Shown here: in pieces, positions 1-9,209 of the stretch
Layout: each line of letters begins with the position of its first letter
How positions within the stretch are numbered: the first letter of the stretch is position 1
Assembly (NCBI RefSeq): GCF_013122565.1
Contig: NZ_CP053258.1
Length of the DNA: 64,000 nt
Reading direction: 5' to 3' (one strand)
Source of the DNA: Escherichia coli
Lineage (GTDB): Bacteria > Pseudomonadota > Gammaproteobacteria > Enterobacterales > Enterobacteriaceae
The notes under the pieces: generated by a model
The model's input: only the letters and a program-made list of their open reading frames with translations
What the model was told of the DNA's origin: nothing
Databases searched by the model: none
Made by a program: the position numbers and the translations under genes

Positions 1-199
1 GCAGCAATTGATTAATCAGGTCAACGAATACATAAACAGTAAGCAATGGCCTGGTAAAGCGGCGATTGGTCGCCTGAAAGGTGAGGAACTGGCGCAATAT
101 AATTTGTGGCTGGATTATCTGGACACACTGGAACTGGTCGATACTTCCGGTGCGCCAGATATTGAATGGCCTACGCCTCCGGCAGTTCAGGCCAGATGA
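1..199 (+). CDS. Tail fiber assembly protein, alternate copy, C-terminal fragment (5' end truncated by window edge; frame starts at position 2)
   Basis: Translation ...LAQYNLWLDYLDTLELVDTSGAPDIEWPTPPAVQAR matches conserved Tfa C-terminus; converges on and overlaps the minus-strand tfa at 171-764. Confidence 0.55.
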   Translation, partial: QQLINQVNEYINSKQWPGKAAIGRLKGEELAQYNLWLDYLDTLELVDTSGAPDIEWPTPPAVQAR

Positions 200-4127: not shown

Positions 4128-4702
4128 ACCGGGCCTCCGGTTGTATCGCCGCCTTTCAGGACGCCAGTATGCTGATGCGCATCAACCACGATCCCGTTAG
4201 AACTCATCGCTCCGCCGCCCTGGGTAACGCCACCATTGATCACAACTTCGCTGTTAATGCGCGTGCGGTCAGCCTCCAGTACAAACTCACTGGTTTTCAG
4301 GGTGATATTGTCAGCGGCCTCAATGACCATGGATTTGATGCCCCTGACATACCAGCGCCCGGTGGCGGGTTCGTATTCAAACCAGCCACCGTCTGGGTAC
4401 TCAACCACGTTGCCGTCCTCAGAGTCTGAAGGTGGTGGAAACTGATTTGAGTAGACAGCAGGCAGGGCAAACGCGGTTTCCAGATTGCCACCCAGGCTGA
4501 ACAGCACAACCTGCTCGCCCACAGACGGTTTCCACCAGGTGCGCGATTTGCCCGCGCGCAGTGTCAGCCAGTTAATCCAGTTGGTTTCGAGGTCGCCCGT
4601 TTTCACCCGACACAGCCAGTTTTCCCGGTCCACTTCGGTGACTACACCTGTGCGAATCAGATTGGTGATAAGGCGCATGATTTCGGTTAGTTGTGCATTC
4701 AT
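4124..4702 (-). CDS. Baseplate spike/assembly protein (P2 gpV-like)
   Basis: 192 aa; MNAQLTEIMRLITNLIRTGVV... aligns with P2 V N-terminus. Confidence 0.85.
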   Translation of the reverse strand: MNAQLTEIMRLITNLIRTGVVTEVDRENWLCRVKTGDLETNWINWLTLRAGKSRTWWKPSVGEQVVLFSLGGNLETAFALPAVYSNQFPPPSDSEDGNVVEYPDGGWFEYEPATGRWYVRGIKSMVIEAADNITLKTSEFVLEADRTRINSEVVINGGVTQGGGAMSSNGIVVDAHQHTGVLKGGDTTGGPV

Positions 4703-4750
4703 GTCGACGATATTTGCACAAACATATATTGTGGGACATTGAGTCAGAAA

Positions 4751-4768
4751 TGTATGACTTACTACACA
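4751..4768. promoter_or_regulatory. TGT-N12-ACA dyad (P2-type late promoter activator element) upstream of V
   Basis: tgtatgacttactacaca; P2 late promoters carry a TGT-N12-ACA dyad bound by Ogr-type activators. Confidence 0.3.
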
Positions 4769-4795
4769 ATGTTTATCCGCGCAAAGGAGTTACAG

Positions 4796-5701
4796 ATGAC
4801 ACAAATCGGTATCTATGGATATTGCTTCACGAAAGAATTTACTTTTAAAGGAGGGACACTGATACCTCGTTACAAATCCTTTAAGGAACTAAAAGAGAAT
4901 AAATGCGATGGAAGCGAATATGTATTAAGTGGATTTTTCTCTCCCGCACATGCTTCTGAAAACACCGTCACTCAAATAATTTATGATCTTTCAGCTGTTT
5001 TAAGTTTCATTGAACAAAAAAATGTAATCATATCAAACTTCCTAGAGGAACATGAAACACCTGAAAAGTTAGATAATAATTTCCCACTAAAATTGAAGTC
5101 AAAAAGAAAGTCATCACTAGGAATAATTGTTGAAGATTACTTCTCTGAAAAGAGTCGCTCAGCGTTCATTGAGCTTGCGATGGATAAACTTCATAGAAAT
5201 ATTAATTCTCATCAAAACCCTTTTAGAACTGCGTTCTATAAGTCTATATTTTCTTTTAGGGAAAGAATGGACTATGTAGATGTTAAATACTTCCTTAATT
5301 TCTCAGCATTAGAATCCCTGTGCAGATATATCGATAACGAGTCGACATCTAGTTATACACCACAAATAATTACAAAGGTTTTAAAAGATTATGGTTTTAA
5401 TGTATCTAAAGAAGGCAACCCTGTACCACAAAGAAACGTGATTCACTATTGCACGCTTCGAAACTCTCTATTCCACAATGGAAATTATATTGGATACATT
5501 AAGAAAGATGATCCAAGCAGTATCATTAAATTAAGTGATTATTATTCAAATCTAAATTTACTTTTACCTTTAGTATTAATGAAATATATAGGATTCGATG
5601 ATGGATTAATTAACTGGGACTCATGGATAGACTATGAACCATTTCTCGCCCTCAGGCCTAAAAACTTAACTCCATCGAATGGTAAACAATCAATTAGATA
5701 G
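4796..5701 (+). CDS. AT-rich cargo gene: hypothetical protein with Rx4H motif (HEPN-like, abortive-infection-like candidate)
   Basis: About 301 aa from MTQIGIYGYCF with AGGAG RBS upstream; low GC relative to flanks; antisense to the S-V tail operon; motif RNSLFH. Confidence 0.7.
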   Translation: MTQIGIYGYCFTKEFTFKGGTLIPRYKSFKELKENKCDGSEYVLSGFFSPAHASENTVTQIIYDLSAVLSFIEQKNVIISNFLEEHETPEKLDNNFPLKLKSKRKSSLGIIVEDYFSEKSRSAFIELAMDKLHRNINSHQNPFRTAFYKSIFSFRERMDYVDVKYFLNFSALESLCRYIDNESTSSYTPQIITKVLKDYGFNVSKEGNPVPQRNVIHYCTLRNSLFHNGNYIGYIKKDDPSSIIKLSDYYSNLNLLLPLVLMKYIGFDDGLINWDSWIDYEPFLALRPKNLTPSNGKQSIR

Positions 5702-6136
5702 CCAGCGCAATAATACATCGTGGGTTAAGGATTCTACGTCATCATTAATACCTAACAAACGACGCTCTGCGTAACGGACCTCCGGTCCTTTGCGACTAAC
5801 GCGATCACGCAGGCCGTAATGGTGAACACGGGCAATACGCTGCACCTTGCCTTCAAACTGTACGCTGGCAGAGTCGGCGCTGGCGGCAGTTTTCAGGTAT
5901 TTTGTGGTGCGCAGCTTTGCAAACATCTGACGTTTGATGCGCCCCTTCTTGCTACGTGCTGTTACCCTGCGCGGTTCATAACTGCTGCCATCTGGATTGC
6001 GCTGCATCCTGATATTCTGCTGCTGTGTCCGGCGCAGTTCCTGCGCCAGCTGGCGCATCATGCGGCTTCTCGTGGCTGGTTCCAGATTCGCCAGCAAGGC
6101 ACTCAGCCAGTCGTCCACCTTCTGCAGTTCAGCCAC
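5690..6136 (-). CDS. Tail completion protein (P2 gpS-like)
   Basis: 148 aa; synteny R-S-V. Confidence 0.85.
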   Translation of the reverse strand: MAELQKVDDWLSALLANLEPATRSRMMRQLAQELRRTQQQNIRMQRNPDGSSYEPRRVTARSKKGRIKRQMFAKLRTTKYLKTAASADSASVQFEGKVQRIARVHHYGLRDRVSRKGPEVRYAERRLLGINDDVESLTHDVLLRWLSN

Positions 6137-6581
6137 GTTTCACCGTCCACATTTCTTCAGGTGCATCAGGTTCCGCTACAGCTTCAACGCTCGACACACT
6201 GCCGTCAGTGCTGACCAGCACACGCTCCGTCAGTTGCAGGTTCAGGCTGATATCACAGACATCGTTGCGCAGAATATCCACCTCAAAGGTGAATAGCTTT
6301 TCCCGTAACGCCAGGTTATTGATAGCATCGGGCTGGTTATCCCTCAGCCACAGCAAAACCGGGGCCATCAGCAGATTCTGGTCGCCGCTGAAATCCTCAA
6401 TCACCACGTTCAGGGTGTAACGGTACTCCCATGACATGGAGCTGGCCCCCGTGGCAACCAGCGAACCGTTATCCACAAACAGATGCAGTTTGTCCGGGTT
6501 ATTGCGGACATAAGGCACCGCTTTATTGAGGGCGTGGCGCAGGGATTGTGGTTTGTTCACTGTTTCGCTCCTGACACGCAA
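6129..6581 (-). CDS. Tail completion protein (P2 gpR-like)
   Basis: 150 aa; synteny. Confidence 0.85.
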   Translation of the reverse strand: MRVRSETVNKPQSLRHALNKAVPYVRNNPDKLHLFVDNGSLVATGASSMSWEYRYTLNVVIEDFSGDQNLLMAPVLLWLRDNQPDAINNLALREKLFTFEVDILRNDVCDISLNLQLTERVLVSTDGSVSSVEAVAEPDAPEEMWTVKRG

Positions 6582-6813
6582 TAATCATGTCCACTTTGTC
6601 TGCACAGACCGCCCAGGCGGCCTCCGTTTCATCCAGCAACGCGTTCAGATTACCGTTAGTGCGCGGCGTTGCCTGATCCAGCCGACACGGCGTCACTCGC
6701 GGACAACCACTGACGGTAAGCTGCACCTCCGGTGAGTGTCGGACGTTCCCGCAGCCGGATAATGTCAGCAGGCAAAGGAGTATCAGCCCAGCGGCGTAAA
6801 TCCTCGTTCTCAC
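6523..6813 (-). CDS. Outer-membrane spanin lipoprotein (P2 LysC / Rz1-like), overlapping lysB and R out of frame
   Basis: 96 aa; lipobox LTLSGC in MRTRIYAAGLILLCLLTLSGCG; Pro-rich. Confidence 0.7.
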   Translation of the reverse strand: MRTRIYAAGLILLCLLTLSGCGNVRHSPEVQLTVSGCPRVTPCRLDQATPRTNGNLNALLDETEAAWAVCADKVDMIIACQERNSEQTTIPAPRPQ

Positions 6814-7084
6814 GTTTCAGTTCCTCAATCCGATGTTGTCGTTGTCTCAGCAGTGCACTGGTCTGTTCTGCTTCGGCGTAGAGCCGCGCCTGCTCCCGGT
6901 TGTTGGTTTCAGCCAGAATGGACAGACTGATCAGCTGGCTATTTTTCTTCGTTAGTTCGTGCGCTTTACTTTTCAGCGCCGCGCGCTGCGTTTCGATGGT
7001 ATGGCTGGCGCTGTTAAGCCGCCACGACTGCCAGCCCAGCGCAACGAGTGCCAGCGCCGCCACTACCGCCAGCGCACGTGTCAT
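6656..7084 (-). CDS. Inner-membrane spanin (P2 LysB / Rz-like)
   Basis: 142 aa; N-terminal TM segment then coiled-coil rich in R/E/Q. Confidence 0.8.
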   Translation of the reverse strand: MTRALAVVAALALVALGWQSWRLNSASHTIETQRAALKSKAHELTKKNSQLISLSILAETNNREQARLYAEAEQTSALLRQRQHRIEELKRENEDLRRWADTPLPADIIRLRERPTLTGGAAYRQWLSASDAVSAGSGNAAH

Positions 7085-7596
7085 AGTCCAGCTCCTTTAA
7101 GGCACCAGGCCATCTCCCGCGCACGGCGGTTATCCAGCCCCTGATTAAACACACCTTTTACATACACCCAGCGCGGCAACTGTCGGCACGCATCCGCCCA
7201 GCGCCGCTGATTGAGCAATTTCACCAGCGTGGAACTACAGGCATTGCCCGTCCCCACGTTGAAGGCAAACGACACCGTAGCGTCATACACCTTCTGCGGT
7301 GGCTGTTGCTTCACACACCTTTCCAGCGCCCGCTCCACACGCAGCACGTTGGAGATCAGCCCTTCTGCTGCCTGTCGCTCCGTGATTGTTTTGCCGGGAA
7401 TGACGCCCGATGTATTACCAATGCCGTCGGTCCAGACACCCGCGCTGCACTGATACGGCTGCAGACGACAGCCTTCGTAATCGGCGATCAGTTTCAGTCC
7501 CTCCACGGAGGTGTGAAGCTGCTGAAAACCCGGCAGCGTGGCAGCAATAGCCAGCACAGCCCCGACAAGGCAGCGTTTAACGATTGATGGATTCAT
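7081..7596 (-). CDS. SAR-type endolysin (T4-lysozyme/GH24-like, resembles phage 21 R)
   Basis: 171 aa; N-terminal hydrophobic CLVGAVLAIAATL then EGLKLIADYEGCRL...WTDGIGNT catalytic region. Confidence 0.85.
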   Translation of the reverse strand: MNPSIVKRCLVGAVLAIAATLPGFQQLHTSVEGLKLIADYEGCRLQPYQCSAGVWTDGIGNTSGVIPGKTITERQAAEGLISNVLRVERALERCVKQQPPQKVYDATVSFAFNVGTGNACSSTLVKLLNQRRWADACRQLPRWVYVKGVFNQGLDNRRAREMAWCLKGAGL

Positions 7597-7792
7597 AGTC
7601 CTCCCGCGAGATCTGCCCGTCGCGCAGAAGCTGGTAGGCTTTGTGTTTGTAGTACCAGTTGATAGCCAGCATCAGCACACCGATCATCAGGCCGCCCAGC
7701 GTTGAGGCATCCTTGATGGACAAATCACCCAGCCAGGCCAGCACAACGGCGATGCAATACGTGATAAAGGCGCTGATTCGCTCAAGCGTCAT
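7577..7792 (-). CDS. Holin (small two-TM, pinholin-like)
   Basis: 71 aa with two hydrophobic segments and charged C-terminus; immediately upstream of endolysin. Confidence 0.65.
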   Translation of the reverse strand: MTLERISAFITYCIAVVLAWLGDLSIKDASTLGGLMIGVLMLAINWYYKHKAYQLLRDGQISREDYESINR

Positions 7793-7795
7793 AAT

Positions 7796-7999
7796 TCAGT
7801 CCCATAGCTGGACGGTCTGCACGGTGGTGGTGGTCGGAATGTCCGGCAGCTCCACCTGCAGCCCGTGAGGTAAAAAGGGGCCAAATTCGGCAAGCCCCGG
7901 ATTTGCCTTCAGTACCTGCTCCGTGACACCCTGCGTGCGCCCGTAATGACGCCAGCAAAGCGCGTCCACCGTGTCATACTGATGCGCACGCACTTTCAT
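7796..7999 (-). CDS. Tail protein X (P2 gpX-like)
   Basis: 67 aa, same length and position as P2 X. Confidence 0.7.
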   Translation of the reverse strand: MKVRAHQYDTVDALCWRHYGRTQGVTEQVLKANPGLAEFGPFLPHGLQVELPDIPTTTTVQTVQLWD

Positions 8000-8526
8000 C
8001 AGATAAGCTCCACTGTGCAGTGCGGCGCATCCTGTACCCGGCAGATGGCCCAGCGGGCGTCACGCCACAAATCACCGCTGGCTTCTGCCAGTTCCTCGCC
8101 CCGCTTCACACCGGATGCCGTGGCGTCATAGTCCTGGTAACGTTCGTTGAGCATGGCGCGAGCCCAGCAGTAAACCGCGTTGAAATAGTGCTGAATTCGC
8201 TCGCTTTTCCCGTCCAGCTGTTCCGCCGGAACCTCTGCCAGCGAGGCATATCCCAGCATCTGCTGGCGTCTGCGAAACTCATACAGCTCTGCGTTGACCT
8301 CCGAAATTGCCGACAGCGCAACCTGCTTTAAACGCGGCTGCGTCACCGTGCCGTCAGTGCGCATCACACTGCGAAACTCCGACAGGTCCACATCAGGCCA
8401 GAACGGCGTATTTCTGATGATTTCCGCCTGTTCCGGTGCCTGTTCTGGCGCAACAAACTTCATGCTGCTTTCTCCTGAAATAGAGGGCGGTGGACGGGGT
8501 TTTGATGTGGCAGTGCCTTTCGCCAC
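7999..8526 (-). CDS. Capsid completion protein (P2 gpL-like)
   Basis: 175 aa; C-terminal ...DLWRDARWAICRVQDAPHCTVELI resembles gpL. Confidence 0.8.
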   Translation of the reverse strand: MAKGTATSKPRPPPSISGESSMKFVAPEQAPEQAEIIRNTPFWPDVDLSEFRSVMRTDGTVTQPRLKQVALSAISEVNAELYEFRRRQQMLGYASLAEVPAEQLDGKSERIQHYFNAVYCWARAMLNERYQDYDATASGVKRGEELAEASGDLWRDARWAICRVQDAPHCTVELI

Positions 8527-8558
8527 CCCGTGCCGCCCGTGCGCGGGGGCACGTTCTG

Positions 8559-9209
8559 TCAGCGGCTGTCATTGCGCAGTCTGCGCTCCAGCTGCTGTTT
8601 GTCTTTTTTCACGCCACAGCGGGGATCGAGCTGTAACGCATGGTTGAGATGATTAAGGGCGGAAGCCGGATTGCTTTCACTCAGGACAGCGCCAATCGCT
8701 TTATGCAGACGCGCCCGTGACTGGTCCGGCATATCCAGACCGTCTGTCAGCTCCAGCGTCTGCAGCAACAGATCGGCATCAAAGCCGGTGGCGGCAAGCA
8801 TTGCGCTCTGCGCGGCGTCTGCCATTTCCTCTGCCAGCACGGTCTGCACGTTGCGGTTACCCAGCGGCATCACCCAGCCATGACGCAGGGCATGACGCCC
8901 GATCTCCAGCGCCCCGGCATAATCTCCGGCATCAATACGCCACAGCATCACGTACATCAGCACGTCATCCTGTTGAGCGCCTCCGGCAGCCAGGACACCC
9001 TCTGCCCAGGCGGCGTACTTCGGCAGCAGCTCCACCTTGATTTCCGCTTTTTTGACCGTGGACTGAACGCCCTTGAGACGGCGGCGGTCTTCCGCCAGTT
9101 GCAGCAGCATCAGGTCATAGCCCGATGCGTGGCGAACACTGCCGCCCTCGCGGGCGGCCTGTTCAGCCTGAACGCGCAGGCGATGCTGCCGTGCGGGACT
9201 CAGGCTCAT
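8559..9209 (-). CDS. Terminase small (endonuclease) subunit (P2 gpM-like)
   Basis: 216 aa; synteny between N and L. Confidence 0.8.
   Translation of the reverse strand: MSLSPARQHRLRVQAEQAAREGGSVRHASGYDLMLLQLAEDRRRLKGVQSTVKKAEIKVELLPKYAAWAEGVLAAGGAQQDDVLMYVMLWRIDAGDYAGALEIGRHALRHGWVMPLGNRNVQTVLAEEMADAAQSAMLAATGFDADLLLQTLELTDGLDMPDQSRARLHKAIGAVLSESNPASALNHLNHALQLDPRCGVKKDKQQLERRLRNDSR

Follow-up and report, generated by a model that had tools for sequence, protein, structure and literature searches.

A P2-like lysis cassette with an HP1-family holin, a P1 Lyz-like endolysin of probable SAR type and overlapping spanins in Escherichia coli

Layout of the lysis locus

The DNA analysed here (the window) is a 64-kb stretch of an Escherichia coli genome. 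Its lysis ORFs are real, all being present on the minus strand where the first-pass annotation had put them, and they lie between two tail genes:

7796..7999, minus strand: tail gene X, directly upstream of the holin gene (PF05489, E=4.9e-34; 61% identity to P2 X)
7577..7792, minus strand: class II holin of the HP1 family, 71 aa (PF16080, 36.7 bits; phrog_20 holin, E=1.9e-26)
7081..7596, minus strand: P1 Lyz-like endolysin of the SAR type, 171 aa (PF00959 Phage_lysozyme, E=4.5e-40, residues 39–161)
6656..7084, minus strand: LysB, Rz-like inner-membrane spanin, 142 aa (TIGR03495 phage_LysB, 175.5 bits; phrog_89, E=5e-46)
6523..6813, minus strand: LysC, Rz1-like outer-membrane lipoprotein spanin, 96 aa (NF038368 P2_Rz1, 121 bits; PF23793, 55.7 bits)
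6129..6560, minus strand: tail completion gene R, outside the lysis function (PF06891, E=2.2e-46; 54% identity to P2 R)

The gene order X–holin–endolysin–lysB/lysC–R–S is that of phage P2, and X, LysB, LysC, R and S each have a homologue in P2. The junction between X and the holin gene, marked by X itself, is the same as in P2. The holin and the endolysin had been described as different from P2 Y and K, and our comparison agrees: the holin aligns with P2 Y over a short transmembrane stretch only (BLASTP E=0.001, not a significant match), and the endolysin is unrelated to P2 K (E=0.095). The family matches of the holin, LysB and LysC far exceed what chance would give. The four lysis ORFs are all intact, each with a ribosome-binding site. 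A scan of positions 4500–8600 for promoters and terminators gave nothing informative within the cassette, and PADLOC and Pfam searches of a neighbouring AT-rich ORF returned no match.

The holin belongs to the HP1 family

The 71-residue holin has two hydrophobic segments by hydropathy (residues 6–22 and 29–45) and a charged C-terminal tail, in keeping with the small two-TM (class II) holin claimed earlier. It passes the threshold of the HP1-holin family PF16080 (Phage_holin_2_3) over residues 6–57, with 36.7 bits against a gathering cut-off of 28.8, and PGAP gives the identical protein the name 'HP1 family phage holin'. The pairwise match to HP1 Hol itself is weak (21% identity, E=0.19), which counts against our best explanation.

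The first-pass annotation had called the holin pinholin-like. A likeness to phage 21 S holds insofar as the protein is small, has two TMDs and sits beside a SAR endolysin; its family, however, is that of HP1 and not that of S21. Direct homology to S21 was considered and rejected, as BLASTP gave no alignment and the match to the phage 21 S family PF04971 stays below the Pfam cut-off (23.2 versus 26 bits). TMD1 is strongly hydrophobic, with a KD value of 2.12 over 17 residues and 35% Gly/Ala/Ser/Thr, compared with less than 1.2 for TMD1 of S21, the sequence of which was verified against phage 21. Because TMD1 is so hydrophobic, an S21-style mechanism in which TMD1 leaves the membrane is not indicated. 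No dual-start antiholin motif was found in the holin gene: there is a single start (MTLER...), with no other start codon between its ATG and the in-frame stop upstream. TMD2 carries a small-residue zipper, S30xxxG34xxxG38, read from the sequence, and a SAR-type lysozyme adjoins a holin of this kind in every phage record that we inspected.

The endolysin resembles P1 Lyz

The endolysin gene begins inside the 3' end of the holin gene, with an overlap of 20 nt, and GGGAGGA stands ahead of its ATG. At the N-terminus, K7 and R8 are followed by a 16-residue uncharged, weakly hydrophobic segment (C9–F24) with 44% Gly/Ala/Ser/Thr, as read from the sequence, and a GH24 muramidase domain (PF00959) follows at residues 39–161; the earlier description of a T4-lysozyme-like catalytic region behind an N-terminal hydrophobic segment of the SAR type is borne out. 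The small-residue motifs A16-I17-A18 and A18-A19-T20 in this region are possible signal peptidase I sites in principle. In several public records the annotated endolysin begins at an internal GTG, so that the SAR segment and Cys9 are lost.

This protein had also been likened to the phage 21 SAR endolysin rather than to P2 K. It is indeed unlike P2 K, but it is nearer to P1 Lyz than to R21. The best PDB match by sequence is P1 Lyz 1xjt (E=2.1e-26, versus 1.5e-17 for phage 21 R, 3hde), and residues E41, C43, C50 and T56 align with P1 Lyz E42, C44, C51 and T57. The catalytic triad is E41-C50-T56, in the pattern E-x8-C-x5-T, with the putative caging Cys43 two residues after the Glu. R21 has Val at the Cys43 position and its catalytic Asp at the Cys50 position, so its regulation would be steric and not thiol-based. 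In an AF2 model of the endolysin (pLDDT 93), residues 11–26 are packed onto the enzyme body with pLDDT 94–96. The best Foldseek match of the model is the active Lyz form 1xjt (TM 0.84); R21 (3hde) matches with TM 0.77, and the SAR-less inactive Lyz form 1xju matches less well (TM 0.58).

Across 20 aligned homologues reaching down to 35% identity, E41, C43, C50 and T56 do not vary. Cys9 stands at the N-terminal edge of the hydrophobic segment and is shared by 18 of the 20, down to 35–45% identity. Among 33 representatives at 50% identity that have the E-C-C-T pattern together with an N-terminal hydrophobic segment, 31 have an N-terminal Cys. A further 28 homologues show the E-C-C-T pattern but have no N-terminal TMD at all, and the Cys43–Cys50 pair alone is therefore no proof of caging.

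The spanins are arranged as in P2

LysB has an N-terminal TMD at about residues 3–20 (peak hydropathy window 4–18), followed by a periplasmic helical domain. Its score of 175.5 bits for the TIGR03495 equivalog compares with a cut-off of 92.75, and it is 34% identical to the C-terminal half of P2 LysB. LysC starts at a GTG and has a signal peptide, MRTRIYAAGLILLCLLTLSGC, with an LSGC lipobox, Cys21 and Gly (non-Asp) at +2. It scores 121 bits against a cut-off of 27 for the NF038368 P2_Rz1 equivalog, and is 41% identical to P2 LysC over residues 1–92 (E=4.5e-24). The PGAP start of LysC falls inside this signal peptide, and LysC is unannotated in phage Cartapus.

As had been reported for this locus, the 96-aa lipoprotein ORF with its LSGC lipobox crosses the 3' part of lysB in another frame and continues into R. 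It occupies the +1 frame within lysB (7084-6813 = 271 = 3x90+1), overlaps it by 158 nt and runs past the lysB stop. The overlap with R measures 38 nt with the R start at GTG 6560, which is the PGAP start and agrees with the N-terminus of P2 R, or 59 nt with the alternative TTG 6581. This overlap had been presented as a departure from P2, which it is not. P2 lysC (8202–8492) also encodes 96 aa, lies in the +1 frame within lysB (8202-7922 = 280 = 3x93+1) and ends 38 nt inside R, and the placement of lysC in the +1 frame inside lysB with its end in R is given for P2 in the literature (PMC3091744).

The LysC frame is conserved in relatives: 274 phage records have a LysC match, and both the ORF and the lipobox are intact in 11 loci. 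From Fels-2 to P2 and phiCTX, LysC retains the lipobox and its four periplasmic Cys residues. Nucleotide identity is 0.82–0.87 in the overlapped segments versus 0.70–0.85 in the single-coding flanks, weak evidence that is consistent with dual coding.

The position of lysA between endolysin and lysB

No lysA-like gene separates the endolysin gene from lysB, as the first-pass annotation had noted. The lysB ATG overlaps the endolysin stop codon (ATGA), so that there is no space for a gene between them. A tblastn search of the 64-kb window for lysA elsewhere, with four LysA-type proteins, gave scattered noise (best E=0.07). The lysA-less form is a common allele, occurring in 233 complete E. coli genomes, whereas 784 carry a lysA-like gene in the slot, of the DNZ54_00345 family, which encodes a 4-TM protein of 125–127 aa. 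Other occupants are a P2-LysA type protein of 143 aa in Midge and two small ORFs in Fels-2.

That the slot is a naturally variable antiholin position, empty here and in the 233 genomes, is a reading we consider rather unlikely. If the fillers are antiholins, the empty allele would show that an HP1-type holin and a thiol-caged SAR endolysin can time lysis without one, and isogenic lysA+ and lysA- prophages would offer a ready means of probing the role of LysA-type proteins. Alleles with and without lysA form a natural pair for a study of lysis timing.

Two further ideas about this region were examined and dropped. Co-variation of the N-terminal third of LysB with the presence of lysA, which would have hinted at a LysA–LysB interaction, is not seen, since the identities over 55 aa do not sort by lysA status: the N-terminal 55 aa of LysB in the window are 0.80 identical to Fels-2 and 0.73 to the lysA-less ST13 phage. 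Database entries for a 296-aa 'endolysin-LysA' and a 235-aa 'holin-endolysin' fusion do not represent a real architecture, as the three sequences that we read are frameshifted, each at a different position. Almost all entries of this sort form clusters with one member, and sequencing errors or sporadic pseudogenes are the most likely explanation for them.

Interpretation and alternatives

Taken together, we interpret the locus, with a probability of about 0.85, as the lysis module in the late operon of a Fels-2/Cartapus-type prophage, P2-like and belonging to the Peduoviridae, in which an HP1-type holin and a P1-Lyz-type SAR endolysin are combined with P2-type overlapped spanins and there is no separate antiholin. 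By homology to the characterised systems, the endolysin would be exported by Sec and then, through the SAR segment at its N-terminus, remain tethered to the inner membrane, where it would probably be inactive, with the catalytic Cys50 tied up in a disulfide bond to Cys43. The class II holin, of 71 aa, would build up in the inner membrane and, at the trigger time, collapse the membrane potential. The SAR segment would then leave the bilayer, allowing the thiol of Cys9 to attack the caging disulfide and free Cys50, and the segment would refold onto the enzyme body to give an active muramidase. Once the murein has been degraded, the outer membrane would be disrupted by LysB, predicted to be anchored in the inner membrane, and LysC, the predicted outer-membrane lipoprotein.

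The holin may instead be a canonical large-hole holin and not a pinholin; we regard this as possible, if somewhat doubtful. A SAR endolysin needs membrane depolarisation only and hence is workable with either holin type, as in the case of P1 Lyz, which is partnered by LydA, a canonical holin, and LydB, an antiholin. In the same direction, TMD1 has the hydrophobicity of an ordinary TMD and, unlike TMD1 of S21, is not Gly/Ala/Ser-rich, and neither Pfam at its cut-off nor BLASTP connects the protein with S21. The TMD2 zipper and the constant neighbourhood of a SAR-type lysozyme speak against a large-hole holin. So does membership of the HP1 family, the prototype of which, HP1 Hol, is lethal without lysis and without release of beta-galactosidase, although the HP1 paper itself describes the topology results as unusual and the mechanism as unknown (PMC7312051).

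The N-terminus of the endolysin could also be a cleavable Sec signal peptide, the enzyme being secreted like Lys44 of phage fOg44, but this we judge very improbable. The n-h-c outline, with K7 and R8 followed by 16 uncharged residues and the AIA and AAT motifs, would suit such a peptide, and SignalP called the equivalent segment of HP1 Lys a signal peptide (PMC7312051). Conservation of Cys9 in distant homologues, on the other hand, would be unexpected if the peptide were discarded, and the segment aligns with the SAR segment of P1 Lyz. P1 Lyz is reportedly left uncleaved (Xu et al. 2004/2005), and AF2 places the segment with high confidence in the folded enzyme, as in 1xjt. Decay is still less probable, to the point of being remote: the absence of lysA would then be the sign of a defective cassette in a prophage remnant, a suspicion fed by the 125-aa lysA-like gene that fills the slot in most close relatives (the 784 genomes) and by the left end of the prophage, which is cut off by the window. 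The same lysA-less junction, however, recurs in the 233 complete E. coli genomes and in the Cartapus and ST13-OXA48phi12.1 records; the four lysis ORFs and their ribosome-binding sites are intact, and the ATGA overlap is clean and not a scar. P2 lysA is, moreover, annotated as nonessential, and HP1 does without an antiholin (PMC7312051).

The module as we read it, with an HP1-type holin, a P1-Lyz-type endolysin and P2-type spanins, is an ordinary and already known lysis set, normal for a large annotated branch of the Peduoviridae, and the earlier suggestion that it is unusual does not stand. It is a common cassette made up of families with characterised prototypes (HP1 Hol/Lys, P1 Lyz and P2 LysB/LysC) and has little significance beyond correct annotation.

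Distribution and comparison with known systems

Of 5426 complete E. coli genomes, 1057 carry the cassette, which is also present in phages Cartapus, Fels-2, KP12 and Midge, and near-identical cassettes are annotated likewise in E. coli (PGAP), Fels-2 and Midge. The Fels-2/Cartapus group has the same holin–endolysin–LysB–LysC set at 77–99% identity, and the annotated Peduoviridae genomes 4LV2017, 813R9, KP12 and Midge have it as well. In most of Fels-2, Cartapus, KP12, 4LV2017, 813R9 and Midge, unlike in the window, the endolysin gene and lysB are separated by further sequence coding for a membrane protein, in some of them of the DNZ54_00345 family (125–127 aa). Two phage records are lysA-less like the window: Cartapus (ICTV species Elveevirus cartapus) and Klebsiella phage ST13-OXA48phi12.1. 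The combination of a P1-Lyz-like SAR endolysin with P2-type spanins was already noted for KP12 (PMC9902359).

HP1 offers the experimental precedent, its Hol and Lys having been shown to be a pinholin and a sec-dependent SAR endolysin; the hol and lys genes overlap, and neither a dual start nor an antiholin is present (Adamczyk-Poplawska et al. 2020, PMC7312051). The window shares these gene features, as well as the PF16080 holin, a LysB-like gene next in order and a P2-like phage background. HP1 Lys is likewise a P1-Lyz-like lysozyme with a Cys in the N-terminal hydrophobic segment and an EGC...C motif (34% identity, E=2e-27). HP1 differs in that Hol has 78 aa and a weaker TMD1, in that the cassette lies behind a tail tube gene and not behind X, and in that no LysC is reported.

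P1 Lyz (PDB 1XJT/1XJU) is a SAR endolysin activated by disulfide isomerisation, and is the closest to the window endolysin in sequence and fold, with the same E-x8-C-x5-T pattern, a caging Cys likewise placed two residues beyond the Glu, and a SAR segment that contains a Cys. Identity is about 35%, and 12 residues are inserted in Lyz near query residue 117; Cys13 of Lyz lies inside the SAR segment, whereas Cys9 here is at the cytoplasmic edge. Phage 21 also has a small class II holin adjoining a SAR GH24 endolysin, but the dual start and the weakly hydrophobic TMD1 of S21 are both absent from the window holin, and R21 lacks the Cys43/Cys50 pair, having Val and Asp in their place. The spanins are like those of P2, with equivalog HMM matches, a 96-aa LysC in the +1 frame of lysB and an end 38 nt into R; P2 lysC starts with ATG and not GTG, and the LysC proteins are 41% and the LysB proteins 34% identical. 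Upstream of the spanins P2 has Y (a class I holin), K and lysA; the window proteins have no significant BLASTP match to Y or K, and no LysA homologue was found in the window.

Architecture of the lysis cassette

The lysis cassette spans 6523-7792 of the window and lies wholly on the minus strand inside a P2-like late operon, in the following gene order.

Genes of the cassette and its surroundings (window positions)
10271-9213, minus strand, capsid gene N
9209-8559, minus strand, terminase subunit M
8526-7999, minus strand, L
7999-7796, minus strand, X
7792-7577, minus strand, holin, 71 aa
7596-7081, minus strand, endolysin, PF00959
7084-6656, minus strand, lysB, TIGR03495
6813-6523, minus strand, lysC, NF038368 P2_Rz1
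6560/6581-6129, minus strand, R
6136-5690, minus strand, S

The endolysin ATG sits 20 nt within the holin 3' end with a GGGAGGA ribosome-binding site ahead of it, and lysC starts at GTG 6813, one codon past an in-frame stop. The ORFs, overlaps, lipobox and empty endolysin-lysB junction described in the first-pass annotation are all present.

The endolysin resembles P1 Lyz

The endolysin begins with MNPSIVKRCLVGAVLAIAATLPGF, followed by a Phage_lysozyme domain (PF00959, E=4.5e-40, residues 39-161). It had been likened to the SAR endolysin of phage 21 (R21); the SAR type fits, but among solved structures P1 Lyz is the closest in sequence (1xjt, E=2.1e-26), with R21 weaker (3hde, E=1.5e-17). Residues E41-G-C43...C50...T56 align to P1 Lyz E42-G-C44...C51...T57, whereas in R21 Val replaces C43 and the catalytic Asp takes the place of C50. 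E41, C43, C50 and T56 are invariant in alignment A2 (20 homologues, identity down to 35%), and at least 90% of the aligned proteins also carry Cys9, which marks the N-terminal edge of the hydrophobic segment. When a 1.84-billion-protein library was scanned in full with HMMER, 148 representatives were returned; of the 33 that combine the E-C-C-T pattern with a hydrophobic N-terminal segment, 31 have an N-terminal Cys. In the AlphaFold model (pLDDT 93), residues 11-26 lie on the body of the protein (pLDDT 94-96), and the top PDB match is active P1 Lyz (1xjt, TM 0.84 over 173 columns); the inactive form 1xju, which lacks the SAR segment, matches far less well (TM 0.58). Sequence and model together are consistent with a thiol-caged SAR endolysin of the P1 Lyz type, and argue against a discarded signal peptide, making cleavage unlikely. 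In the 813R9 and Fels-2 records the endolysin is started at an internal GTG (157-158 aa), so that the SAR segment and Cys9 are lost.

The holin belongs to the HP1 family

The holin has two hydrophobic segments (residues 6-22 and 29-45) and scores above the Pfam threshold for the HP1 holin family (PF16080, 36.7 vs 28.8 bits). It falls below that for the phage 21 S family (PF04971, 23.2 vs 26 bits), and BLASTP gave no alignment with the phage 21 holin S21, whose sequence as used here was confirmed to agree 100% with that of phage 21. Its TMD1 is strongly hydrophobic (KD 2.12), whereas that of S21 is SAR-like, and it lacks a dual start. The experimentally studied family prototype, HP1 Hol, kills cells without beta-galactosidase release, is required for lysis alongside a sec-dependent SAR endolysin, and lacks both an antiholin and a dual start, with hol and lys overlapping (PMC7312051). 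HP1 Lys is likewise of the P1 Lyz type, with a Cys in its SAR segment. Family membership thus makes the earlier label 'pinholin-like' a reasonable guess at the function of this putative pinholin, which shares only 21% identity with HP1 Hol and would be of the HP1 kind and not the phage 21 kind.

A variable slot between endolysin and lysB

The start of lysB and the stop of the endolysin gene share the sequence ATGA, leaving no gene between the two, so the reported absence of a lysA-like gene stands. Many close relatives, including 813R9, 4LV2017 and KP12, carry here a 125-aa multi-TM protein (NCBIfam DNZ54_00345 / phrog_162) with only marginal similarity to P2 LysA. This gene occurs in 784 E. 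coli genomes, and the direct junction in 233, BL21 among them, as well as in phages Cartapus and ST13-OXA48phi12.1.

Contents of the slot
Empty: window 7081-7084; Cartapus; ST13-OXA48phi12.1; BL21
DNZ54_00345 family, 125-127 aa: 813R9 (L002 1982-2359); ST512-KPC3phi13.2 (L008 1150-1533)
P2-LysA type, 143 aa: Midge (L006 2709-3140)
Two small ORFs: Fels-2 (L005 1358-1733)

The slot proteins of 813R9 and ST512-KPC3phi13.2 are only 39% identical. On either side of the indel the sequence has diverged, in the endolysin 3' end and in the lysB 5' third; the indel looks like a common mosaic exchange of modules, not like the scar of a deletion. The LysB N-terminal 55 aa (6920-7084) are only 64% identical to 813R9, against 92% for the remainder and 95-98% for flanking genes; the lysB 5' third thus marks a recombination boundary adjoining the slot. 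Across six phages, LysB N-terminal divergence did not correlate with lysA presence.

The phrog_162 label 'endolysin' looks like a mislabel of a multi-TM family. The BL21 P2-like prophage (NZ_CP060121.1 852887-853085) has the same junction at 97% identity; there the endolysin carries the name 'glycoside hydrolase family protein' instead of 'lysozyme', a hint that the gene is altered or truncated.

The spanins

LysB scores above equivalog model TIGR03495 (175.5 bits) and LysC above NF038368 P2_Rz1 (121 bits, aligned from residue 5). The LysC N-terminus, MRTRIYAAGLILLCLLTLSGC followed by G, is a lipoprotein signal with lipobox LSGC. Its frame, whose conservation in relatives had been the point to check, was found by tblastn in 274 phage records (among them Fels-2 77%, phiCTX 50%, P2 41%); ORF, signal peptide, lipobox (LSGC, LAGC, CAGC or CVGC) and four periplasmic Cys are kept in all 11 loci examined. 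PGAP starts LysC 14 codons downstream, within the signal peptide (82 aa), and Cartapus leaves it unannotated.

Fused database proteins and an AT-rich ORF

The protein database holds many 277-296-aa 'endolysin + LysA-like' entries, one 235-aa 'holin + endolysin' and one 288-aa 'endolysin + gpD' (matches P0003, P0015, P0020, P0021, P0051). Because the sequences read have frameshifts at differing positions and nearly all entries are single-member clusters, assembly errors or sporadic pseudogenes are the probable explanation; P0015, reported on 30 contigs, may be a real lineage.

A 301-aa ORF at 4796-5701 (plus strand; phrog_4373, unknown function, E=1.5e-111) occupies the P2 orf30 position, on the strand opposite to the tail genes S and V that flank it, with 32-34% GC against ~57% around it. 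Pfam gives nothing above threshold (SBDS_domain_II only, sub-cutoff), and neither NCBIfam nor PADLOC has a match. The ORF resembles a moron or cargo gene and is a possible candidate for a defence function.

Distribution and comparison with P2

Of 5426 complete E. coli genomes, 1057 have a match to the 1.9-kb cassette region, most of them at 95-99% identity; 58 phage records (Klebsiella, Escherichia, Salmonella, Yersinia) match as well. PGAP names the genes 'HP1 family phage holin / lysozyme / LysB / LysC', the Fels-2 record lists a putative holin with 2 TMs and likens the endolysin to P1 Lyz, and Midge reads 'holin class II / SAR endolysin / putative antiholin / i-spanin / o-spanin'. A P1-Lyz-like SAR endolysin with P2-type overlapped spanins has been described in KP12 (PMC9902359). 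The cassette type is well populated, previously annotated and published, with nothing new past annotation detail. Public annotations are inconsistent at the equivalents of 6523-6813 and 7081-7596 (loci L001, L002, L003 and L005).

The cassette had been said to differ from canonical P2, in part because LysC overlaps lysB and R out of frame. That part fails, since P2 (NC_001895) has the same arrangement, given explicitly by Lynch et al. 2010 (PMC3091744): its lysC (8202-8492, also 96 aa) begins in the +1 frame within lysB (7922-8347) and stops 38 nt inside R (start 8455). In the window lysC is likewise +1 relative to lysB (7084-6813 = 271 = 3n+1), and its overlap with R is 38 nt from the PGAP start GTG 6560, at which R begins MNKPQSLRHAL (P2 R, MLKPDSLRRAL). 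The two LysC proteins align from residue 1 (MRTRIYAAG vs MRTKIFAAG; 41% identity, E=4.5e-24). The true departures from P2 are three: the holin, which does not significantly resemble the class I holin Y; the endolysin, which has no similarity to K (E=0.095); and the missing lysA. The cassette is a lysA-less allele in which an HP1/P1-type holin and SAR endolysin are joined to P2-type LysB/LysC.
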